From IMG/VR virus record IMGVR_UViG_2684622552_000004, positions 1 through 37,863 of that record: a stretch of 37,863 nt of DNA; one strand, given 5' to 3'. This stretch comes from a virus. Lineage: Duplodnaviria > Heunggongvirae > Uroviricota > Caudoviricetes. Shown piece by piece: positions 1-30,047 of this stretch (position 1 is its first letter; each line of letters opens with the position of its first letter). The translations under genes and the position numbers were made by a program. The notes beneath the pieces are model-generated. The model was not told the DNA's origin, ran no database searches, and saw only the letters and a list, made by a program, of their open reading frames with translations.

Positions 1-1512
1 ATGATGTTAAATAATAAAAAACACTATTCAACATATATTTTGATATCAGTACTTATTATTATGTTACTGATAAGGGAGTTTTGGTTTGCTAGCAGACAGG
101 GACTACATATCGATGAGTCTCTGTCTTTTATCCTATCCGCCTATAAAGATTATGGATGGACAAAGGTTTTTGGTTCTCTAACAGAGATAACTGGTAGCCA
201 GGTACGGCAGTTGATATGGTTCAGTGACGATTCTATAAAAGGAATGCTTCGCGATGTATATCATTTGTGGCAAGATAACAGAGACACCCCTCATAGCAAT
301 CTATATTATTCATTATTAAGAATGTGGTTCACTGGGATAAATCCAGAAGGCAACACTTCATTTATAACAAACTGGGCATTTAAGCTTAACCAGTTATTTT
401 TCGTTGTTTCTTTTGTTGCCATATACGGCATAGCGAATAGGTTATTCAACAGTAAACAAATAGCAATATTGGTAGTTTTTGTTTCATTCATTAATACAGC
501 ATCTATATCAAACAGCATTTTTCTTAGACCATATCAAATGCAAGAAGCGCTTGTAGCGATATATACGCTTACCAGCCTAATTTTAATTAGAGAAAAATTA
601 TCATTGCGCTTATTGGTTATCCATTCAATTTCAACATCACTTGCAATGTTGAGCGGCTATTTTGCTCTATTTTATGTTGCAATGATTTCTGTTTTCTTAT
701 TTCCCTATTTAATTATAAAGTATAAAAATAATTTAAAAAACGCCATCTCATTTGCAGTAAAATACATCGCACTAACCTCGATTATTTCTTACGCGGTATA
801 TCCAAAATATTTTTTCGTTGATGGGAACAGGCAAGGAGAGGCATTAGATAAGCTTGGTAGTTTTAGCGACAACCTAGTTAATTCAGTAAAATCATTGTCT
901 ATGATTAATGACTTCTTTCCTATCGGGGTGTTAATCGCGCTAACAGTCATAGCGGTGTCATTGTTTTTTATTGTTAAGAATAAAAACATAATGAGTGAAA
1001 CTAATTACTTTGTATTTATTCTTGCATCAACCGTTATGATGTGGGTGATAATCGTGCAATTATTATCCCCATATAAGAACCTTGCTAGATATATATACCC
1101 ATCACTGCCTATGTTTGGTTTGTTTTACGGATATATAGTATTCAGCATATATAACAATTATAAATCAGTAAAGGCATTACCCATCATTGCATCAGTAGTT
1201 ATATTGATATCATCTACGTATTTATATTTTAATGGTGAAAAGGTCGATTATATTAATAAAAATAGAGAAAAAGATTGCGCCATTATTCCTGAACATAGTG
1301 TCATAATAGCAAAATCACCATGGAAAATGGGATACATTGCAACCTGCCTTAATTCAGAGGAAAAGTACGGAATGACTAATAATTTTGACTATAACATTTT
1401 CAAATCAAAAGGGTATACCACTATAATAAGCGACCAAGATATAACCAGCGAAAACGTTAAATTAGTTAATGGAAATGTCATGGTCTACTTCAAAAAATAC
1501 AGCATGAATTGA
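1..1512 (+). CDS. Polytopic membrane protein, putative O-antigen-modifying glycosyltransferase (GtrC-like serotype conversion)
   Basis: 503-aa ORF with many hydrophobic helices, visibly AT-rich versus the rest of the window. Convergent with the tailspike gene, the position GtrC occupies in P22-like prophages. Assignment is positional; no motif was verified. Confidence 0.4.
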   Translation: MMLNNKKHYSTYILISVLIIMLLIREFWFASRQGLHIDESLSFILSAYKDYGWTKVFGSLTEITGSQVRQLIWFSDDSIKGMLRDVYHLWQDNRDTPHSNLYYSLLRMWFTGINPEGNTSFITNWAFKLNQLFFVVSFVAIYGIANRLFNSKQIAILVVFVSFINTASISNSIFLRPYQMQEALVAIYTLTSLILIREKLSLRLLVIHSISTSLAMLSGYFALFYVAMISVFLFPYLIIKYKNNLKNAISFAVKYIALTSIISYAVYPKYFFVDGNRQGEALDKLGSFSDNLVNSVKSLSMINDFFPIGVLIALTVIAVSLFFIVKNKNIMSETNYFVFILASTVMMWVIIVQLLSPYKNLARYIYPSLPMFGLFYGYIVFSIYNNYKSVKALPIIASVVILISSTYLYFNGEKVDYINKNREKDCAIIPEHSVIIAKSPWKMGYIATCLNSEEKYGMTNNFDYNIFKSKGYTTIISDQDITSENVKLVNGNVMVYFKKYSMN

Positions 1513-1519
1513 TTAACAC

Positions 1520-1548
1520 GGCCCCATTATAGATGGGGCCACTTTTAG
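1520..1548. terminator. Bidirectional hairpin terminator between convergent genes
   Basis: Perfect 8-bp inverted repeat GGCCCCAT / ATGGGGCC with 5-nt loop, followed by CTTTT, in the 32-bp gap between the membrane-protein gene and the tailspike gene. Confidence 0.5.
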
Positions 1549-3980
1549 ATATTAGATGTTTGAATTATATCTGTATTCGCTTTATTGGAGGAAGGGTAAT
1601 TACAAGTAAATGTTGAATTCAATGTCGCATTTTCTCCAAACCATAGCTTATTTGTTGTACTAACAGAACCAGAGACAGATCCAGATATTTCCAATCCATT
1701 TATAGCATCTCTGAATGTATTTTTAACGCATCTAATGGTTTGATAATGAGATAACCATGACTGCCCTCCAGTATCCCTAAACAAACATGATGCTGCTGGT
1801 ACGCCAGGAGTTGATGAACTAATAAAATTACCTATCATTTCAAGGTAATTATATGGTCCAGTTAATGCAGTACCTGCAGGAAGGCTAGCAATGATATTGC
1901 CACCATTAAGGATGTTATTGTTTACCCTCATTATCTTTGGTGTATATCCTGACGGACTTATATCCAGTAAATATGAGTTATTCACACCAAAGTCATTATC
2001 ATTAATTTCAACCACACAGGAGCTTGAACATTTTATATTAAATCTTGTATAAGTCCCTTCAAATTTATTGCGATTTAACCTCACATAATTAAACCCATTG
2101 CCTAAGTTAGAATACATGCTACCGAAGAAGCGAGTTCCTGGTATTGCGTTATTCCATATGAATTTATTGGAATTGATATCCAGAGATGTTGAATAACTCC
2201 CGAAAGAAAATGAACAGTTCCTGAATTCATTCCCTTGAATTAATACTTTTTCAAAATTACTTACATGTAGATTGGCTGTTGAGGTTACTAAAAGCCTGCC
2301 CATGATATTGTTTGTTAGGCGCAGTGATGAGTTTGATATTTCTGGCTGGTCAACACCAATAATCATTCCATCACCAGTTATGTTTATTGTGTTATTATCA
2401 ATCCTCCAATCAGAGTTAGTTATATGAGTATAAATAGTCATAAAAGTAGGGGCTTGGAAAACATTATTCTCAATATTAACATTATAGGATGTCATCAAAT
2501 AATCGTTACTTCCAGAAGCACCCAATAAAAATATTCTATCCTTAGATAAAACAGTATTTCCGCTAATAGTTATAGCTCTTAACCAGTTAGTGTTAAACCA
2601 TTCCGTTCCTTTATTGTTGCTGATCATCATCCACATTCCATCACATGTTGCTGTGTTTCCTGTTACTGTGATCTGCCCCCATGGCTGAACCTGAGCAGCA
2701 CCAGTTCCGCCACCCGTATCAAATGCCATACAATAATCAATGATATCAAATGTATTGCCAGTAACTGTATATCTGTTAAAACCGAATCTACCTTTAACCG
2801 CTCCATTTCCGCGAGTATTTATTCTATTCCTGAAGGTATTACCTGTTACAGTAATATCACCAACCAGAATTCCATTACCCTGATCTGTAAATGCTGCTCC
2901 TGCGGTATAAACCGCATGGTCATACCATCCAAGAAATGAGCAACTAGACACTCGAAGGTTTCTGGCATTCCCTACAACACAACCACCAGGTGCGTCTTTA
3001 AAAACCATATCAAAAACGACCAGTCCTGACGTTTTTTTGTCATGGTTATAATATGTCTCTCCAGCAACTGGGATGTTACCATCAGGACCATGTATATAAG
3101 GAGATGTACCACCTGGTTCGATATCACCATAATAAGTTTGGTCTGGAATTCCTGTAGTGCTGCTGGTTCCCGATGCAGCAACTTCAATTGAACGTGCATT
3201 ACCATCAATTTGTAACCCATGCACCGACTGAGCACCTACAGCACCACTCAGGAATCGGAATAATTTACGGGTATCTCTTGCCGGATCAATCTCGGTCGTA
3301 GAACCTTCAACAAAGTATGTGCGATACCGGCGAGTAATAGTTGCTGAACCATCGCCCCATACTGAACGAACATATGACCATACATTAACAGCCGTATCAA
3401 AACAGTATATTCCAGTTGGGAAGTATACGGAGCATTTAAGATTATGCGCCTCATCCATGACCATCTGAACTTTAGGCTGATGGTTTATTGAAAGGTCACC
3501 AGATGCCAAAGCAGCCAGCTCTGCTTCGTTCATATATTTTGTAGCCAGAATACTTGGTGTCTTCTCTACATATTCATCAAGTGTTCCATATCGGGTGTTT
3601 ACAAGAGAACCATTGCCATTAGCTAATTCAAGGCGCAACTGGTCAGGATCGTATTTCAGTACATTAGGATAATAGAACTGCTGTGCCCCGTACGCATCAT
3701 AAACAGCCATAGAATGGCCTTTCACAGTTACGAACTTGGCAATCTGCCCGTTATATACAGGATATCCAGCAGCGTTAATGATGATTGGTTGCGAAACAGG
3801 AACGTGAGAACCATCTTCGTTCTCTATATAAACCTGAATCTGGTTTTCAGGATTTACCGGGTCAGTGTCAATTTTTCCGATATAAATTTTTCCATTGGCT
3901 ACGGCTTTAAAAGAACGCGCCATAGTGAAGAGTTGCGAAGGCATACTCACTACAACATTGGCATTTATTGAATCTGTCAT
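1545..3980 (-). CDS. Tailspike protein: P22 gp9-type N-terminal head-binding domain plus divergent beta-helix receptor-binding domain
   Basis: N-terminus [12 protein letters not shown]...[12 protein letters not shown]...DTDPVNP...[10 protein letters not shown]...VLKYDPDQ closely resembles the P22 tailspike head-binding domain. The rest has repeated VTGNTF / ISGNT / IDNNT rungs typical of parallel beta-helix O-antigen depolymerases. Start moved to internal ATG at 3980 (MTD...); the ORF track extends 15 codons upstream. Confidence 0.9.
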
Positions 3981-4067
3981 TTTAATTTCTCTATATGTTA
4001 AGCCAGCAATATTCATTGCTAGCATGTTTTTTGTATAATGAGTGCACTTTATTTAAAGGTGGTTAAC

Positions 4068-4577
4068 ATGAACTGGAACGAAGTATTCGTATTAAAAGAC
4101 GATGGACTCCTGTACTGGAGTGACCAATATCTTTCAAGACCCAAAATGTTCAATATCTCTAAAGAAAAGCCTGCAGGACATATATTCAAGGACAAGAACA
4201 GGAAAACCTCTTATATAATTATTAGGTATCAAGATAAAATATACGCCGCCCACAGGATAATATGGGAAATGTGTTATGGTGAAATCCCTTCCGGAATGCA
4301 AATTGACCATAAAGATGGTAATGGGTTAAATAATTCAATAGACAACCTGCGTCTAGTTAGTCTCGGTGAAAACCTAAAAAACAAATCTAAATACACAAAC
4401 AATACATCTGGGTGCGCAGGGGTTTCATGGCATAAGACCCATAAAAAGTGGGTGGCATATATTAGCGACGCAGGGAAGCGCATTAATCTCGGATACTTTA
4501 AGAGTCTCGATGATGCAATTGCTGTAAGGCGTGAGGCTGAAAAGACCTATGGTTATCATGAGAATCATGGTAGGTAA
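4068..4577 (+). CDS. HNH homing endonuclease with C-terminal AP2-like DNA-binding domain
   Basis: Motif IDHKDGNGLNNSIDNLRLVSLGENLKNKS (HNH His-Asn-Asn) followed by AP2-like segment SGCAGVSWHK...WVAYI...GKRINLGYF. SD AAAGGTGG 6 nt before the ATG at 4068. AT-rich, opposite strand to flanking virion genes. Confidence 0.8.
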   Translation: MNWNEVFVLKDDGLLYWSDQYLSRPKMFNISKEKPAGHIFKDKNRKTSYIIIRYQDKIYAAHRIIWEMCYGEIPSGMQIDHKDGNGLNNSIDNLRLVSLGENLKNKSKYTNNTSGCAGVSWHKTHKKWVAYISDAGKRINLGYFKSLDDAIAVRREAEKTYGYHENHGR

Positions 4578-4751
4578 TGTCTGTCATTTAATTTGCTCCA
4601 GACGTAGCAATGCGGAACAAGATGCAACTTGCCCGGCATTGCACTAATGTCAGTTATGATCTGTTAATTATGAGATGAGTCTATGCAAAGAGATCTGTTG
4701 AATATTGCGTTCTACATATTTGGTTTTTGCGCGTTCCTGGTGTTTGCGAAA

Positions 4752-6749
4752 CTATTCTGACAACGCATCAGACTTAGCGCCTTGGGTCAGCGCGTTAATG
4801 GCCTTTTGCGCCTGCTGCATGGCTTTCTCAAACGCTGTTGATCCGCGTGGGGTGTTTGCCATTCGGAGCATTGCATTTCTGAATGGCTCGCTCTCATAGG
4901 CGCGAGTAAGAAGTCCGTAGCTTACTGCTGCGCCAGTTGTTGCAGGGTTCATTGCCGTCCCATACCCGATAATGAACGGGATGGTTTGCTGGCCTGTGGG
5001 TGTTGTTACAGCCGCTTTTGCAGCCTGCTGCGTGGATTGAAGGTAGTTTTTCAATCCTTTCAGATAAGCGGCTTCCTGACCTTGAAATGTGATTCCAGTC
5101 TGGTTTTGCAGGATGTTAAGCTGTCGAAGGAACTGGTCAGGGGATCCGCCAGATTTCTCCATCGCCTTTCCAATGATGCCATTGCGCATTTGCGCCCTGC
5201 CAACACGACCAACTGAGTTATACAGAGTCTTAATTTCCGATTTGTTCTTGCTGAATAGCATGTTGTTGACAACTTCCGGCGTCAGGTCGCCTTTCATGAG
5301 AACATTCTTCAGCCTGGTATTTTTTAGTTTCTCCGCTTCGTCAGCGTAGACGGCATTGGCCTGCTGATATTTACGGAGAGTATCGTTGCCAAGATTCTGA
5401 CCAATGGCACCATTGATATCTTCGGTCATCGCCTTGTAAACTCGCTGAATGGCGGCATCGGAACGGTTTGGTAACACTGGTCGCTCCCCCTTCACGTCCA
5501 TTCTGAACTGGCTGCGCAGGTCGCTTAATTGCTTCAAATCCAGATTTACCGGACCATCAGGGCCAGCATTGCGAACAAGCTCATCACGATATGACTGAAG
5601 TTTTGAAATAGTCTCGTTATCAGCAACCTTACCAAGCTTCTGCAGGTTAGATATCTCAGTATCTATCTGCTGAATTGCTCGTGCAGGCTGAATGTTGACT
5701 CCTGCCATTGCATTCTGAACCTGCTCAAGACGGTTCCCAGCAGCACGACGAATTCCTGATGTTTTCGCTTTAAGGCTGTCAATAACAACCGCTGGATCAT
5801 ACTCACCGAATTTATCAGCAAATCTCTGAACCAACTGACTTCTCGCTTCCTGTTGCGTTGCTCTCATTCCGCTTGTGCCAGCCAGGGGGATATTTTCTGC
5901 TGTCGTTTGCGCCATTTTTCCGACGCGGGAAGTAGGCTGTAACAGGTCTGTGGTGTGCAGAGGCACTCCTTCACGCTCTGCAAATCTGATAGCTTGCTGC
6001 GCTTCTGGTGCAATAGCACCACGAACGCCACGATAAGCAGCGCCTAATCCACGTCCGGCAGCGTTAATAGTGCCGCCAGCCAGAACGCCAACGCCTAAAT
6101 CGGTAGCGAGTGCTTCCGCATCATCTTTCGCACTATTTGCAGCAAGTGACCCGACTGCGTTTTCAGCGATAAGGCGAGTTGCACCCTGAGCGATTCTACC
6201 AGCGAGTGTTGGTGCCTGTGTTGCCGCTCTCTCAATGCCAGCAGGAGTGAGGTAAGGCAATGCTTCAGCAAATACCCTTCCCTCTGTCGTTTGTGGAGTC
6301 AGCGCGCCTTGCTGAAGGCCAAAGTCCTGCTCTAATCCCTGCGTTGTTACTCGTGGCGCTGGTTGATATGTCCCATCGCCAATTCCGAGTTTACCGCCAG
6401 CCCAAGCCGCCGCGCTTGTTACAGCATCGGCAACTGATGCAGGTATGTTTGCCACGTTCACGCCAGCCTGCACCAGTCCGCGACCAGTCTCTTTTACTGC
6501 TTCGCCAAGATCAGACATAAATCCACTTTGCTGTGGTTGTTGCTGTGCTACTGGTTGCTGTGTCTCCACTGACTGCACAGATGGCAATGGATAGGCAGCA
6601 TAGAAAGCTTGCTTAGCCTGCTCTGCATTTTCTCCGGCTTGCGGGGCCACGACTTCATTGAAGTATTGCTCCTGAGCCTGCGCTTTTTGTTCTGGTGCTA
6701 ACGCCTGATACTGTGGAGAGGCGATAACATCTTTCCATGCTTTAGCCAT
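4752..6749 (-). CDS. DNA ejection (injection) protein, P22 gp16-like
   Basis: 665-aa ORF in the conserved position between gp20 and the tailspike; start codon overlaps the upstream stop (TAATG). Q/A-rich low-complexity N-terminus typical of ejection proteins. Confidence 0.7.
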   Translation of the reverse strand: MAKAWKDVIASPQYQALAPEQKAQAQEQYFNEVVAPQAGENAEQAKQAFYAAYPLPSVQSVETQQPVAQQQPQQSGFMSDLGEAVKETGRGLVQAGVNVANIPASVADAVTSAAAWAGGKLGIGDGTYQPAPRVTTQGLEQDFGLQQGALTPQTTEGRVFAEALPYLTPAGIERAATQAPTLAGRIAQGATRLIAENAVGSLAANSAKDDAEALATDLGVGVLAGGTINAAGRGLGAAYRGVRGAIAPEAQQAIRFAEREGVPLHTTDLLQPTSRVGKMAQTTAENIPLAGTSGMRATQQEARSQLVQRFADKFGEYDPAVVIDSLKAKTSGIRRAAGNRLEQVQNAMAGVNIQPARAIQQIDTEISNLQKLGKVADNETISKLQSYRDELVRNAGPDGPVNLDLKQLSDLRSQFRMDVKGERPVLPNRSDAAIQRVYKAMTEDINGAIGQNLGNDTLRKYQQANAVYADEAEKLKNTRLKNVLMKGDLTPEVVNNMLFSKNKSEIKTLYNSVGRVGRAQMRNGIIGKAMEKSGGSPDQFLRQLNILQNQTGITFQGQEAAYLKGLKNYLQSTQQAAKAAVTTPTGQQTIPFIIGYGTAMNPATTGAAVSYGLLTRAYESEPFRNAMLRMANTPRGSTAFEKAMQQAQKAINALTQGAKSDALSE

Positions 6750-8050
6750 TAATCACCCCATAGTGAAGAAAAGTTACTGCCAGCATGAGTTTGTTGCCCT
6801 GGCATATTCTGCACCGGCTCCTGATAATCAAACTGTTTTTTAACAGTGCTCAACTTGCTTTCAAGCTGATTTCGAATCTTTCCGATAGAGTCACGAAAAG
6901 CCTTTTCACTCATTTTTGGGCTTAGGGCACCAACCGCATCGGATAATTTTTTACCCTCAGCATCTGAAAGAGCGCCCATACCCTTCAGGGACTGCACCAT
7001 AGGAAGGAATGTTTGAGCTTTAAAGGTGTCGAGCCTTGCTTCAAAGTTAGCCGCATCAGAGCCAGGAACTGTCGGAAACGCTGAGCGAATTCCTACTGCT
7101 TTTGAAAGGCCGGGGCTTTGCTCTATCTCGTTGAGAGAATCAAGCGCGGTGCTGAACGTATCAACTGCACCCTGAGCGGCGGCCTGCCTGTCAGCGCGGG
7201 CTATGTCAGCCTTTTGCCGAACATCTGCCTGTTTCTGTTTTAGCTCTTCAAGCTTTAACTGATTGCTTTCTCTGGCTATCTGTCTGTCCAGAGCCTTTTC
7301 TTGTAATTCTGCTCTTTGTATTTCTCGGGAAAGAGCAGCATTCTGTGCGCTGATGTTCTGTCCACGTATCTGGATGTCCTGACCTCGAGCTGTTAGTGCT
7401 TCTCCGGCCTGATTGCTGCGGATTGTCTCTGCCAGTCTGCCTCGGTCAATCTCACGACCAGCCATCTTGTCCTGAACATTGAAGTAATCAATCGGACCAA
7501 GCGCAGCCATCCCAAGGTGATCAACAAACTCACCAAATCCTGAAGGATTCTGCTGATACATCTGAGCAACGTTGTTAGGGTCAACACCGACGCGCGCCAG
7601 TTCCTTGGCGTTGTTTTGCAGCCATGATTGCATTGCTTCTGGAGACGAGGCCGCAAGGCGTGCGCCAGCCGCTAAGGTGCCGATAGAATTGCGCTGGTCT
7701 TCGTCTGCCCACTTCATACCAGACTGAATCTTCTCTAATTGACCAGGATATTTGGTCATCAGATCTCGAACCTGCTGTCGATCACCTGACTGGATGGCTG
7801 CCGCATATTCTTTTTGGAATGCAGCATCCGCTTCCTGTTGCTTTGCGGCTTGATATGTTTGAGCGACACTACCAAGCCCCTGCAACGCCTGAAGGCCGAT
7901 GTTATTGCGACCTGAACGCTCCATTTCGTTGTTCTGGCGAATATAGGCCAACGCCTCACTTACATCACTTGCCTTTGGCGCATTTGAGTTTTGCCCACCG
8001 ATACCAGCAAGAAAACCGCCTGAGTTGATTCCTTGTTGCCAAGTAGCCAT
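6749..8050 (-). CDS. DNA ejection protein, P22 gp20-like
   Basis: 433-aa ORF at the gp20 position of the P22 order 7-20-16; coiled-coil-rich central region. Confidence 0.7.
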   Translation of the reverse strand: MATWQQGINSGGFLAGIGGQNSNAPKASDVSEALAYIRQNNEMERSGRNNIGLQALQGLGSVAQTYQAAKQQEADAAFQKEYAAAIQSGDRQQVRDLMTKYPGQLEKIQSGMKWADEDQRNSIGTLAAGARLAASSPEAMQSWLQNNAKELARVGVDPNNVAQMYQQNPSGFGEFVDHLGMAALGPIDYFNVQDKMAGREIDRGRLAETIRSNQAGEALTARGQDIQIRGQNISAQNAALSREIQRAELQEKALDRQIARESNQLKLEELKQKQADVRQKADIARADRQAAAQGAVDTFSTALDSLNEIEQSPGLSKAVGIRSAFPTVPGSDAANFEARLDTFKAQTFLPMVQSLKGMGALSDAEGKKLSDAVGALSPKMSEKAFRDSIGKIRNQLESKLSTVKKQFDYQEPVQNMPGQQTHAGSNFSSLWGD

Positions 8051-8059
8051 ATTCCCACC

Positions 8060-8734
8060 TTAAAACAATGATCCAAGACCACCGATAACACCGCCAGCAA
8101 GAGCACCAATACCAGTCCCAATAACAGGAACTGCACTACCAATCATTGCACCTGATGCGGCCCCACCAATGGCACCTGTAGCAAAACTCTGTAGGCCTGA
8201 AGGCTTATTGGCATTTGCTGCCGCTGCCGCCGCCTGCTGTTGATACAACTGGCTGACGTTGTTAGCGTAGTTCTGCCCGGCGTTTGCCTGACCTGTAAGA
8301 GCACCAAGGCCGATATTTGCCAGATTGTTGTAGTTGTTCATCTGACCTGACAGCCAGTTTTGACCGAGTGTAGGTGCGATTGCTGCTAACTGGTTTCCTG
8401 TTGCTGTAGAGCCTAATCCACCCGTTGCCTCTGCTGCTGCCAGACTCTGATAGCGCGCCTGCCCTGCAAGGTCTTTATACTGCTGGGAGTTGTAATACTG
8501 GTTAAGCTCCTGACCTTGCCCCTGAAGAGAGGAAAGATTTTGCAACTGTGATACGTACTGCTGAGCGAGTGGCGTGAACGGTGCAAGGTTCTGCATGTTC
8601 GTTTGCCACATTTCACGCTGCAATTCGATGCCCTTTTCAGTTGCGCGTGCCTGGGCTTTTGAACCGCCATCACTGCCACCTTTGCAGTAAACAGTTTTGC
8701 TGAGGTGCTTATTGGCAATCTGGAAAATTAACAT
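8060..8734 (-). CDS. DNA ejection protein, P22 gp7-like
   Basis: 224-aa ORF with Q/N/G-rich low-complexity regions and a glycine-rich hydrophobic C-terminus; gp7 position and size (P22 gp7 about 229 aa). Confidence 0.7.
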   Translation of the reverse strand: MLIFQIANKHLSKTVYCKGGSDGGSKAQARATEKGIELQREMWQTNMQNLAPFTPLAQQYVSQLQNLSSLQGQGQELNQYYNSQQYKDLAGQARYQSLAAAEATGGLGSTATGNQLAAIAPTLGQNWLSGQMNNYNNLANIGLGALTGQANAGQNYANNVSQLYQQQAAAAAANANKPSGLQSFATGAIGGAASGAMIGSAVPVIGTGIGALAGGVIGGLGSLF

Positions 8735-9191
8735 TCTTTAGCTCCTCGTATTTTGAGCGCGGTAACTGATAAATCGTGATGCCTACAGGCTTTCCATTGC
8801 TGGTATAAGCATCATCAAGGTGACCAACACGGGTAGCGCCAAGCAAACGGATAATTGCCCGTCCGTATTTCGTGGTGTCAGGAACCATGGTGATGCTGTT
8901 AAGGAATGGTGAGTTTTCGAGAAGCCATTTGCAGAATAATCGATGCCCTTGCAGTGCATATTCACCACGGAATCCGGGGTCGTACACCGCATGGCATTCA
9001 ACAACGCTATGCCAGAAGTTACGCACTTCATGAACGCCAGCCAGCACTAATCCTTCGTAGATACCGAGATATACCGCATCAGGCTTGATGTAGTATTTGT
9101 CTCCACTGTCTACGATATTTCCCGTGTTTGCCGGGTTGTTGAGGAATTCTGCAAGCTTCACCGGATTATCGATGAGCTTTATTTCCATCAC
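8709..9191 (-). CDS. P22 gp14-like virion protein
   Basis: 160-aa ORF between tail needle and gp7, matching the size and position of P22 gene 14. Confidence 0.55.
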
Positions 9192-10036
9192 TGCTCCGCA
9201 ATGATTTTGATGGTTGTGGCAGTAAACGCCGCACCATTTGACTGAATGGTTAACGTGCTGCCATTTGTAGCAAGAAAGCCGTCTTTATCCACGCTGAAGA
9301 ACGTAGCTAACAAGATGTTATCGGTTGTTGTCGCCGAGTTGCGACTGCTTACCAGAGTGTCAGGAACAGAGCCGGAAAATGTTAGCTGCATTGACCTGTT
9401 GGCGGTTCCGCTGGGCCACGTCCCGACAATCGACAGCTTGAAGAACAAGGTTTTGTTCTCGTTGAACACAACCATCTTGTTGTTAACGGTGTCGAAGAAT
9501 GGTGCCAACGTGCCGGATGACGGCGTGAGCGTTTTCAGCAGGCTAACAAGGTTGGTCGGCGCTGTCGGGATGGTTACAGATACGCCAGAGTAAACAACTT
9601 CTGACTTCTTGCGCGTAGTGGCATACTCAAGAGCATCGATGCGCGTTTCATGGTCTGAAAGCGTGTTTTGAATGGCGACAACTTCATCCGTCAGATAATC
9701 AATATCGTTTTCTGCTGTCGTTAATCGTGAATCAAGTCCGACTATCGCCGCTTCTGCGTTAGTAATCCTTGTTTCGTGGTCCTGAATCTTCGCTTCAGCT
9801 GATGCCAGTCGAATTTCGTGATCAACCAGAATCACATCCTGCTCATCGTTCCTGACCTGTGCATCATAAGCGCCTTGTCCGGCCTCGTTGGCCTTGTTCG
9901 CCACATTACCAACATCAGCACCCTGTGCAATAACGTAAAGCAGATACGACTGCGAGAAGATATTGCGTGGAAGGATTGATGTATCGAGCCGCGTCGCCTG
10001 AACAATAACAGGTGTATTGAGATTCGAATCCGCCAT
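9188..10036 (-). CDS. Tail needle protein (P22 gp26-like) with extended C-terminal domain
   Basis: N-terminus [39 protein letters not shown]...[19 protein letters not shown] resembles the P22 gp26 hub-binding tip; heptad coiled coil follows. 282 aa versus 233 aa in P22, with a non-coiled C-terminal domain. Confidence 0.8.
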
Positions 10037-11453
10037 TACTCAATCCTTATCTGAGCACCAGACAGAGTGACAGGTGACTTCGTGATAACGCGCAATTTGA
10101 AGCCAATGTTTTTCCTGATGCGCCCTACTTTCTTCCACAAAACGCGTTTGTCGTAAACGAACGGTTCATTCTGCTCAATCATCTGCTCACGCCCGTAATT
10201 GATGCCGTCAGTTGTAGCAGAGAGGAACAGGCGGTCAGCATACTGAGCAACACCCGTCGATGATTCCACCTCCAGATCAAAGCATCTGGCGTTATCTGCT
10301 TTGAAGAGTGGAGTAAACAGCAGGTGTTCTTGCTGTAGCCCATACTGGCTGCTGATATCGAACTGCAATTTCCCGGTCACGGACTCCAGTTTATCGCCGC
10401 ACGTTATCTGATTGCCTTCGTAAATGAAGTCGATAGCGCGGTACACATCGTCATACAGGCCTGTTTTCAGTACACACCATTGCGGACCATTGGAGCTTGA
10501 AGATGCGTCGTATACGAGGACATGGCGCGGAAGATGGATAATCAGCAACTCATGAGCATCAAACCGCAACGATTCCATCACGCCATCAGCCAGTTCATCA
10601 GCAGTGTAGGAGCGTAGTATTTTCTCAATGCTCGCGCTGGCAATTGGTGATACCTGACCGGAGCCGATGATATACACAGACGCGCACCCGTTGCCGGATT
10701 GCTGATGAACGCATAAGAATCAGCGAATGGCGTTTTGCAGTAGGTTCCGGCAATCCCTTTCTGCACCATCAGTGATGGCTGTGCGACATACAAAGCGGCA
10801 CCAACGGTGGTTGCACCAGTCAGGGAGAAATATTCAATCGTCGATGAACCAAAGCAGACGATGAAGTCTCGCCATGTACCTATGCCGATGATGCCATCAG
10901 GCTGAGATTCTGCGCGATATTGTGCGCTGTATCGGTCAGGGTGTGATTCGTCTTCAAGGTCAGTGATAAACCATGAATCAGTACCGTCTTTTGACCACGC
11001 ATAACGCCCACGTAAGCGCGTAATGTCACGAACTGAACCTAACTCGTACTGTGTGAATCCGCTGTCTGTAGGCCAGTTTGAGACGGTTTTAACCGTACCA
11101 TCATAGCGATACTCGACCAGTTGACCATTAACGCCTACAGCCTGAGATGTTCGACCATGCGCCATTGATACGCGGCCACTTCCGGCGACGTCACCGACTT
11201 CGCTTTCGCCTTTGTAGAGCTTGCCGCCACACACACGATAAACAGCACTCTGCGCCATGTTGTACTCGACGCCGCGAGATACACCGTTCACATCAGAACG
11301 TTTGGCAATGCCCGGGAATGAGCGAAGATATCCGCTGCTGTTGAGGATTTCTTTGGGGGTTGCCAGCATATTCACTGGCAGATAGTCGATATAGTCGGCG
11401 TTTCGGAAGTCTTTGCCGACACCTTTCATAAGCGGAAGTTGCTGAATCGGCAT
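10036..11453 (-). pseudogene. Tail hub protein (P22 gp10-like) interrupted by a frameshift
   Basis: Two overlapping minus-strand ORFs (10578..11453, 291 aa; 10036..10677, 213 aa) together equal the length of one gp10-like protein (about 472 aa). The downstream frame has no real start; the track begins it at a GTG inside continuous coding sequence (...SVYIIGSGQ). Frame switch near 10680-10690. Confidence 0.7.
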
Positions 11454-11954
11454 TTATTCGCTCCCGTCATCGCAATGTTCCTTCCGGTGGAAGTAATTCC
11501 AACCGTTCCACTTCGCCAACTGGTTACCACTACCAACAGGCATGCGGTTTGGATAACCGGACTTACATTTAGCGGCTTTTGCTCTGTCCATTGCAGACAG
11601 TTTGACGAGTCTCTCTTTCCCGTATCTGGCAGTGGTTATAAGTTTTGCAGACGCTTCCAGCGCATAATCCGGAGCAATGCGGCAGGCAAGGTTGAAAATG
11701 ACGGCATTGATAGCGTTATTTGATAAACCGTGTTCATCGCCAGGATCTGGAGCGACATCTGCATCAGCGAAAATGTAGCCAACGTTGATACCTGGTGACG
11801 CATCACCGCCAAGCCACTCAGCCATCATCATTTCAAGGTCGTTGACGCCATCTTCCATGGACTGCGGTTCGACATCGGTTAACGTGGCATTTGATGCCAC
11901 ACCGAGCTTACGTAATGCCGCAAGAACTAAATCACCCTTCGTTGTCAGGTTCAT
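11454..11954 (-). CDS. Head-to-tail adaptor protein (P22 gp4-like)
   Basis: [47 protein letters not shown]...[13 protein letters not shown] resembles P22 gp4; 166 aa from the internal ATG at 11954. The track's upstream extension reads the hexanucleotide repeat as SQSQSQ. Confidence 0.8.
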
Positions 11955-12001
11955 CTGCTGCCGCCTTAGGTTTTCGACCAGGCTTTTTACGCTGTTTTTC
12001 T

Positions 12002-12047
<46 letters not shown>

Positions 12048-12236
12048 CAACATCCTTCAGAAGATCATCAGGATGTGCAAACCAGCCAGCATCCAGATAT
12101 TCCTGAAGCTCTTCGGCTTTCACGATTTCAAAGTCGTATCCAACGCCTTTCTACTTCTTCATGTCTCCATGACGAAAGATCATGTGTGTCATGCTTGTCT
12201 CCAGATAAAAAAGGGAGCCGAAGCTCCCTCTGGTTA

Positions 12237-28276: not shown

Positions 28277-28993
28277 ATGGAAAATAAAAAATCACTGACG
28301 ACAGAACAGCTCGAAGACGCTAAGCGGCTTAAGGCTTTGTATGAGTCAAAAAAGAAAGAATTGGGAATAACCCAATACTCAATCGCTGATGAACTGGGTA
28401 TCACCCAAGGAGCGGTAGGGCATTATCTTAATGGCAGAAACGCGCTAAACGTTGAGGTTGCATCTGGTTTTGCACGACTGTTGCAAGTCTCAATTGCTGA
28501 TTTTAGCCAGTCAATTGCTGCCAAGGTTGCAGAACAGGCAGAAAGCCTTAAGAGCGATGCCAACGTAAGGTATGCAGGGGAATACAGAGCAGGAAAGAGG
28601 TATCCGGTGTTAAGCAGTATCCAGGCTGGCTCGTGGTGTGAAGCATGCGAACCATACACCATTAAAGACATAGATGTTTGGCTTGAGTCTGACGCGCATA
28701 TTCAAGGTAATGCGTTTTGGCTTAAAGTGGAAGGTGATTCAATGACGGCACCGGTTGGGTTAAGCATTCCAGAGGGAACATTCGTTCTTTTCGATACCGG
28801 AAGGGAGGCGATCAACGGCAGCTTGGTCATAGCAAAACTTTCTGACTCTAACGAAGCAACATTCAAGAAGCTGATAATCGACGGCGGAAATAAATACCTC
28901 AAGGGACTTAATCCTGCATGGCCTCTCGTGCCAATCAATGGAAACTGCAAGATTATAGGCGTTGCAATTGAGACAAAACTAAGGCTGGTTTGA
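28277..28993 (+). CDS. cI: cI-type repressor (HTH plus S24 LexA-like autopeptidase domain)
   Basis: N-terminal HTH (QYSIADELGITQGAVGHYLNG), C-terminal S24 domain with GDSM serine motif and conserved Lys (FKKL); divergent from cro across the operator region. Confidence 0.9.
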   Translation: MENKKSLTTEQLEDAKRLKALYESKKKELGITQYSIADELGITQGAVGHYLNGRNALNVEVASGFARLLQVSIADFSQSIAAKVAEQAESLKSDANVRYAGEYRAGKRYPVLSSIQAGSWCEACEPYTIKDIDVWLESDAHIQGNAFWLKVEGDSMTAPVGLSIPEGTFVLFDTGREAINGSLVIAKLSDSNEATFKKLIIDGGNKYLKGLNPAWPLVPINGNCKIIGVAIETKLRLV

Positions 28994-29010
28994 TCACGCA
29001 AGGGGCGCTT

Positions 29011-29379
29011 ATGGTTGGAACCGCTATAGCAAGCTTTTTTGGGATGTTGGCAATCTCGACAATTTACGGCTTAGCGCATGCTTTTATTGCGAAATCTCTA
29101 TCAGAAAAAATAAGCCAGGCTTGGGCGCATAGATCAGCTCGTTTCATGATTCTTGTGATCATAGCAATACAAGGGATATCTGCATTTATCCTCTATGGAT
29201 CAAGCTTATACCTATTGTATCAAGGCGCGACATTTACGCCTTACACCAGTGATTACGGAACTCTATACGATGGTAGTGAAGACATCACTGTGGCTTGGAT
29301 CGTCTTTGGTTTATCTATGGCCGTGTCTGTTGTAGCAGACATCATTAAGGTAATTCTCGTCTTAACCTTCGCTGACTAA
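29011..29379 (+). CDS. Small membrane protein co-transcribed with cI (rex position)
   Basis: About 122 aa from ATG 29011 (SD AAGGGG), three predicted TM helices, AT-rich. Begins 18 nt after the cI stop and precedes OL/pL. Confidence 0.6.
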   Translation: MVGTAIASFFGMLAISTIYGLAHAFIAKSLSEKISQAWAHRSARFMILVIIAIQGISAFILYGSSLYLLYQGATFTPYTSDYGTLYDGSEDITVAWIVFGLSMAVSVVADIIKVILVLTFAD

Positions 29380-29466
29380 CCTATAATCCCGGCAGCAATA
29401 GCTATCGGGATCCACTTCACATATCCCGCATAAAAAGCACTGAACAAGTAGACACCGAAAAAAATA

Positions 29467-29747: not shown

Positions 29748-30047
29748 ATGACAGTAGTCATTACATATCTGGCTGACGATAACACCAGAAATCGCCGCAG
29801 AGCACGCAGACAGGCTCAACGTGAACAGGCAATGCAAGAACAGCGACTGGCGCGAAAGATTGCGCTAAAGCTCTCTGGTTGCGTCAGAGCAGATAAAGCA
29901 GCATCACTCGGAAGCCTTCGCTGCAAGAAGGCAGAAGAAGTCGAGCGTAAACAGAACCGTATTTACTACAGCAAGCCACGTAGTGAAATGGGTGTGACTT
30001 GTGTTGGTCGCCAGAAAATGAAATTAGGCAGCAAACCACTTATTTGA
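29748..30047 (+). CDS. N: Antitermination protein N
   Basis: Arg-rich N-terminus NTRNRRRARRQAQREQ and C-terminus RIYYSKPRSEMGVTCVGRQKMKLGSKPLI resembling lambda N (RTWYSKPGERGITCSGRQKIKGKSIPLI); SD GGAGG. Confidence 0.85.
   Translation: MTVVITYLADDNTRNRRRARRQAQREQAMQEQRLARKIALKLSGCVRADKAASLGSLRCKKAEEVERKQNRIYYSKPRSEMGVTCVGRQKMKLGSKPLI

Follow-up and report, generated by a model that had tools for sequence, protein, structure and literature searches.

A one-base deletion splits the tail hub gene gp10 in a P22/Sf6-like prophage of Escherichia fergusonii and is probably a recent inactivating mutation

A virion gene that is spread over two overlapping reading frames may be broken, wrongly sequenced or recoded, and this is the question raised by gp10, the tail hub gene of a prophage in Escherichia fergusonii GTA-EF03. 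The strain was isolated from ground beef (PMC4832150). The window, by which we mean the whole stretch of 37,863 nucleotides analysed here, derives from assembly GCA_000968895.2. Its positions 1-11512 are identical to contig JZWN02000001.1, and window position 1 corresponds to contig position 1,205,694. The element is a P22/Sf6-like (Lederbergvirus) prophage of Sf6/HK620-like composition. It is a mosaic, and neither the phage records nor the complete E. coli genomes contained a near-identical match to the whole window. At the right end of the window lies the integrase gene, and gtrA and gtrB are located just beyond the left end, beside hmp and glyA.

The left boundary of the element lies outside the window. 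In the fetched locus L125, the prophage runs left past the window start and ends beside hmp and glyA, and both the start and the stop of the window coincide exactly with gene boundaries. The first ORF of the window (1-1512, plus strand) encodes 503 aa without a Pfam match and is an exact match to an E. fergusonii protein. It follows gtrA (PF04138) and gtrB (PF00535), both outside the window (L125 8723-10014), and this position suggests that it is probably the serotype-specific glucosyltransferase of the gtrC type.

The earlier note had read the two overlapping frames as one full-length gp10 interrupted by a single-base indel near 10681-10688, and both points are borne out. The 469 positions of the Pfam family PF11134 (Phage_stabilise) are divided between the frames, with positions 1-255 in the N-terminal ORF (E = 1e-158) and 257-469 in the C-terminal ORF (E = 2e-129), which identifies the two ORFs as halves of a single gene (Table 1). 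At the site itself, the sequence is GGTGCGCCGTCT in Sf6 gene 8, the E. coli APEC O2-211 prophage and phage Louie but GGTGCG-CGTCT in the window. Exactly one base is absent at 10682/10683, a C on the coding strand or one G of a GG pair on the plus strand, and the deleted base is the first of the Pro258 codon. The alignment to intact P22/Sf6-like gp10, which the earlier note had suggested as a check, contains this one-base gap and is otherwise conserved. Full-length gp10 matches all measure 1419 nt, both in 129 phage records and at 858 places in E. coli, against 1418 nt in the window. Inserting one base generates a 472-aa ORF with an identity of 98.9% to Sf6 gp8 and of 99.8% to gp10 of APEC O2-211, and the repaired protein aligns over residues 1-472 with PDB 7SG7 and 8TVR. 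A tblastn search with the repaired protein against the source contig recovers residues 1-257 at 100%, and the C-terminal part has 100% amino acid identity to APEC O2-211 gp10.

The ORF list also agrees that the N-terminal frame ends in ...FISNPATGA followed by an out-of-frame tail, which runs from RLCISS to NWLMA. No database protein contains this tail, as the protein search matched the in-frame part only. The C-terminal ORF is listed as 10036..10677 on the minus strand (VYIIGSGQ... to the stop), and its frame is open upstream to 10719, so that it overlaps the N-terminal frame by 139 nt (10719-10581). The statement that the C-terminal frame has no start of its own has to be corrected. Possible starts are present as a GTG at 10677 (V260), with the sequence GGGUG 7 nt upstream, and as an in-frame ATG at 10578-10576 (Met293). 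This ATG shares one base with the stop codon of the N-terminal ORF in a UGAUG overlap, a possible reinitiation point judging by the sequence. Both starts are unchanged in intact relatives and are thus incidental.

The surroundings of gp10 are those of an ordinary late operon. The position between gp4 and gp26 matches the order in Sf6 and in E. coli prophages. The product of gp4 is 97-98% identical to gp4 of phage Louie and of an O178:H19 prophage, and the exact protein is present in 108 blocks of the collection. The ATG of gp26 overlaps the gp10 stop by one base, an overlap that is likewise annotated in Sf6, and the gp26 DNA is 100% identical to that of E. fergusonii ATCC 35469 and other relatives. 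In the source record, NCBI left the interval from gp4 to gp26 without a called CDS, which is consistent with annotation as a pseudogene. The gp10 sequence covers the whole PF11134 profile and has the right operon position, but it does not form an uninterrupted ORF of about 472 codons. The window gp10 is hence a disrupted copy (pseudogene) of the PF11134 family and not a functional member as it stands.

Table 1. Coordinates of the split gp10 gene and neighbouring features in the window.
Feature	Position	Strand	Description	Basis
Small conserved gene between the coat gene and gp4	11932..12192	-	TGG->TAG amber at 12153-12151, codon 14	
gp4 head-to-tail adaptor	11454..11954	-	166 aa, intact, directly upstream of gp10	PF11650
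gp10 N-terminal ORF	10578..11453	-	291 aa: 257 native residues and a 34-residue out-of-frame tail	ORF list
gp10 native codons 1-257	10683..11453	-	Ending ...NPATGA	ORF list, PF11134 1-255
1-nt deletion site	10681..10683	-	Coding strand CCG->CG; plus strand GG->G beside 10682	Alignment
Out-of-frame tail	10578..10682	-	34 codons (RLCISSAPVRYHQLPARALRKYYAPTLLMNWLMA), then stop TGA 10580-10578	ORF translation
UGAUG overlap	10576..10580	-	N-terminal ORF stop shares one base with in-frame ATG (Met293)	Sequence
gp10 codons 259-472 and stop	10036..10680	-	Frame -1 relative to the N-terminal part	Translation, PF11134 257-469
gp26 tail needle	9188..10036	-	282 aa, Sf6-type knob, intact	PF16532

Judged by the sequence collections searched, the deletion is private to the source sequence. 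An exact-pattern scan with a 32-nt pattern across the deletion, in which wobble positions were left free, gave 0 matches in viral_contigs, genome_contigs and metagenome_contigs; the intact 32-nt pattern gave at least 120 matches in viral_contigs alone. Among E. coli genomes, 613 gave a match to an 86-nt query placed across the site. None of these reached 99% identity and each among the matches listed spanned 87 nt, which indicates that all 613 genomes carry the extra base. Most fetched loci with gp10 (119 of 148) contain the gene at full length in a single frame. The remaining loci are mostly cut at the locus edge, and in two of them (L034 and L054) the alignment stays in one frame from residue 1 to residue 470. 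A split gp10 was found among the 148 loci only in the source contig and in the unrelated locus L143 (GCA_974490425.1), a P22-like prophage in which gp10 is also called as two genes, with the break near codon 93 (3502-4921). In all contigs with a portal protein identical to that of the window, gp10 is intact at 472 aa. The 291-aa, 213-aa and 180-aa fragments had no exact match on record from other assemblies, and the repaired 472-aa protein is not on record from any other assembly either. Look-ups with gp7, gp26, gp4, gp14 and the portal led to other strains or to the source contig alone. The lesion is therefore known from one deposited sequence. A two-ORF arrangement shared with related intact phages would, according to the earlier note, have spoken against its reading, and no such phage was found.

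The nearest relative for this segment is locus L145 (GCA_045076755.1), with three differences over window positions 10391-12236 (1.85 kb). Within gp10 (10391-11453), the deletion at 10682 is the sole difference. The second difference, G/A at 11544 in gp4, is synonymous as L145 encodes an identical gp4. The third, T/C at 12152, converts TGG to TAG in the small gene upstream of gp4, which occupies the position of Sf6 gene 6 and HK620 hkbT and is not called as a gene in the source record. The site is TGG in all 36 relatives with the region. Two of the three private differences from L145 are thus disabling, one of them being a substitution. On sequence comparison the lesion is very recent, since about 99-100% protein identity to intact relatives is retained in both halves of gp10 and a relative matches the flanking 1 kb at all other positions.

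We consider a genuine recent inactivating mutation of gp10, which would leave the prophage defective, to be the best explanation, with a probability of about two in three (0.68). This reading is favored by the Illumina coverage of 132x of the first assembly version, the non-homopolymer context of the site, the lack of any other frame-breaking indel in the late operon and the amber codon located 1.5 kb away. A comparison of the window with all fetched relatives covered indels of lengths not divisible by three. In the well-covered late operon (5-20 kb), the deletion in gp10 alone is uncompensated, and no compensating indel was found near it. Expectations for mutational decay agree with the observations, as the change is private and disabling against near-identical intact relatives and a further independent disabling lesion is present in the element (the amber codon). 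Expectations for an error-prone context do not, with a run of only 2 nt at the site and no similar indels in 5-20 kb. Besides the deletion and the amber codon, the late operon showed no further lesion; for the early region, the comparison covered only 1-4 relatives.

Several other candidates from these scans were rejected. Gaps of non-triplet length at 3963-3980, 9712/9719 and 10054/10057 are mutually compensating or precede the start annotated for the tailspike gene, and a gap at 11505 reflects a different allele type of gp4, with gp4 itself intact. Premature stops were screened with the ORFs of relatives, and except for the stop at 12153 the matches were alternative-frame ORFs inside real genes. 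At 29458, the window has a one-base insertion compared to the only two aligned relatives. It is located between the ORFs 28990-29379 and 29748-30047 and is probably intergenic.

A sequencing or assembly artefact, with a true gp10 that is intact at 1419 nt and a deposited consensus that dropped one base, is the less likely explanation but carries real weight. The first version of the assembly was generated from Illumina MiSeq data at 132x with Quake read correction and SPAdes (PMC4832150), though these methods describe version 1 and the window was taken from version 2 (a 1.35 Mb contig, against an N50 of 349 kb in version 1). The version 2 contigs are far longer than the published Illumina version, and long reads could be involved. 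The lesion is a single base within a GG/CC pair, both halves are otherwise undamaged as would be expected of an intact gene, and the sequence is present in one deposited assembly only. Disruptions of gp10 of the error type do occur in other assemblies. In L158 (CP045140.1), also a P22-like prophage, gp10 is called as two genes with a break near codon 54 (633-2050). This looks like an error-prone assembly because many neighboring genes are fragmented, whereas gp10 is the only frame-shifted gene in the window.

Other observations weigh against an artefact. Non-homopolymer indels are rare in error-corrected high-coverage Illumina data, and the published data are of this kind. Besides the late operon, where gp10 has the sole frame-breaking indel, genes in 10 kb of host flank have normal lengths. 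The other late genes are equal in length to those of an annotated relative. Best identities to relatives are 100% for terS, gp26 and gp7, with one mismatch each in terL and the portal gene, so that the consensus is accurate. The second private disabling change, being a substitution, is hard to explain as an error. Two disabling changes among three private ones are a pattern more in keeping with a late operon that has genuinely been released from selection than with random errors in the consensus. A 5-kb contig in the Logan assembly of SRR1916749, which probably represents GTA-EF03 reads, is identical to window positions 1-3559 and ends inside the tailspike gene.

If the deletion is a genuine mutation, its consequences would fall on the assembly of the virion. 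The tail hub of Sf6 is a hexamer in which each protomer forms one interrupted six-bladed beta-propeller, and the apical domain is formed jointly by N- and C-terminal extensions (PMC9728967). It bridges the gp4-type adaptor, the six tailspikes attach to it, and the needle closes it (PMC9728967; PDB 7SG7, 8TVR, 8EAP). Translation from the normal start would yield 257 native and 34 nonsense residues and stop at 10578. This truncated product would be devoid of about half of the propeller blades and half of the apical domain, so that no hexameric hub would be expected. The structure that prolongs the portal channel, anchors the tailspikes and takes the needle as its plug should thus not assemble. 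Since the start of gp26 is normally coupled to the gp10 stop through their overlap, a stop 540 nt too early may additionally lower the expression of gp26 and later genes. The prophage would be expected to still lysogenise and to keep its gtr O-antigen genes. Based on what is known of P22 and Sf6, heads would not be completed upon induction and few or no infectious particles would be produced. On this analysis, the prophage is probably defective for particle production, even with all its other late genes intact.

A residual output of virions is very unlikely, and would require either rare -1 slippage in the 139-nt overlap or reinitiation at UGAUG with complementing fragments; the prophage would then be leaky and not dead. 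Rare slippage might suffice because a particle needs no more than six gp10 chains. The related proposal of a functional split, with the N-terminal fragment and a separately initiated C-terminal fragment (from the GTG at 10677 or the UGAUG ATG) reassembling into a hub, is extremely unlikely. Some beta-propellers tolerate fragment complementation, and candidate internal starts exist in the form of the GTG, with its upstream GGGUG, and the UGAUG overlap. However, the conservation of these starts in intact relatives makes them incidental, and no relative is divided at the same site. The N-terminal fragment ends in 34 nonsense residues, and a C-terminal fragment started anew at Met293 would be missing residues 258-292. 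The protomer moreover forms a single propeller, with an apical domain that requires the N and C termini of the same chain (PMC9728967).

Programmed recoding, by which a -1 ribosomal frameshift or transcriptional slippage in 10719-10581 would make full-length gp10, has a practically negligible probability, and the ranking in the earlier note, which had placed a defective prophage or a sequencing error above a programmed shift, was sound. The C-terminal frame is indeed -1 relative to the N-terminal frame over the 139-nt overlap, and a weak A_AAA site (10623-10620) could permit occasional -1 slippage of tRNA-Lys. A total of 6 gp10 copies would suffice per virion (PMC9728967). Yet a scan of the N-terminal frame (10730-10570) for X_XXY_YYZ heptamers found none of canonical form and half-sites only. 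A homopolymer suited to transcriptional slippage (about 8 or more A/T) is absent, the longest run being the A4 at 10623-10620. The predicted RNA structure is no more stable than that of shuffled sequences (MFE -48.4 against a shuffle mean of -49.1 kcal/mol, z = 0.17, for folds free of pseudoknots). A shift at A_AAA would also swap about 20 conserved residues. The two-frame arrangement occurs in no relative, and the overlap is identical in sequence to that of single-ORF relatives, which argues that nothing has evolved for recoding. Tail assembly chaperones of the lambda G/GT type share with the window two overlapping frames that need a -1 shift for fusion. The window differs from this type in having no slippery heptamer, stimulatory structure or conserved arrangement, and the gp10 family is not known to use recoding. 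A programmed frameshift was therefore rejected and can be regarded as effectively excluded.

Intact members of the family are the closest known systems for comparison. The Sf6 gene 8 protein (PDB 7SG7) has 472 aa, as does the repaired window gp10, and Sf6 has the same gene order of adaptor (gp4-type), hub and needle. The Sf6 hub gene, though, is one ORF of 1419 nt, and the window gene is split after codon 257. P22 gp10 (the packaged DNA stabilization protein; PDB 8TVR, 8U10, 8EAP) belongs to PF11134 as well, with an alignment over 1-472 and bit scores above 1000, and occupies an equal position in the late operon. The DNA of P22 gp10 is more divergent (80-90% band), and the gene is intact with a known role in head completion. 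The case most likely represents a private frameshift of an ordinary kind in a structural gene of a prophage, the essential tail hub gene. The significance lies mostly in annotation. We suggest that gp10 be recorded as a frameshifted pseudogene and the prophage be listed as a probable non-producer of particles. The locus offers a clean example of the earliest step in prophage grounding, in which gtr O-antigen conversion genes are kept and an essential virion protein is lost. The amber codon paired with the deletion is a hint that selection has ceased to act on the late operon in GTA-EF03.

The segment shows additional signs of exchange and repeat variation. The gp10 gene is itself a recombination mosaic, being identical to E. 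fergusonii ATCC 35469 (L132) over 9188-10212 and 10756-11453, with 24 mismatches between 10212 and 10756. The small gene contains a perfect hexanucleotide tandem repeat of 7.7 copies of TCTGGC (12002-12047), which encodes (EP)n in this gene and, in another frame, an SQSQ... extension upstream of gp4. Across four aligned relatives there are between about 5 and about 13 copies, and every length difference is a multiple of 6 nt. Between the tailspike gene and gp16, at 4038-4577 on the plus strand, the window has an HNH endonuclease gene (PF13392). In the late operons of relatives, HNH genes are found elsewhere, between gp14 and gp7 (L130), between gp10 and gp26 (L153 and L156) and between the scaffold and coat genes (L169), and an HNH gene adjoins gp10 in Salmonella phage UPF_BP1. 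Such scattered late-operon HNH genes look like mobile homing endonucleases.
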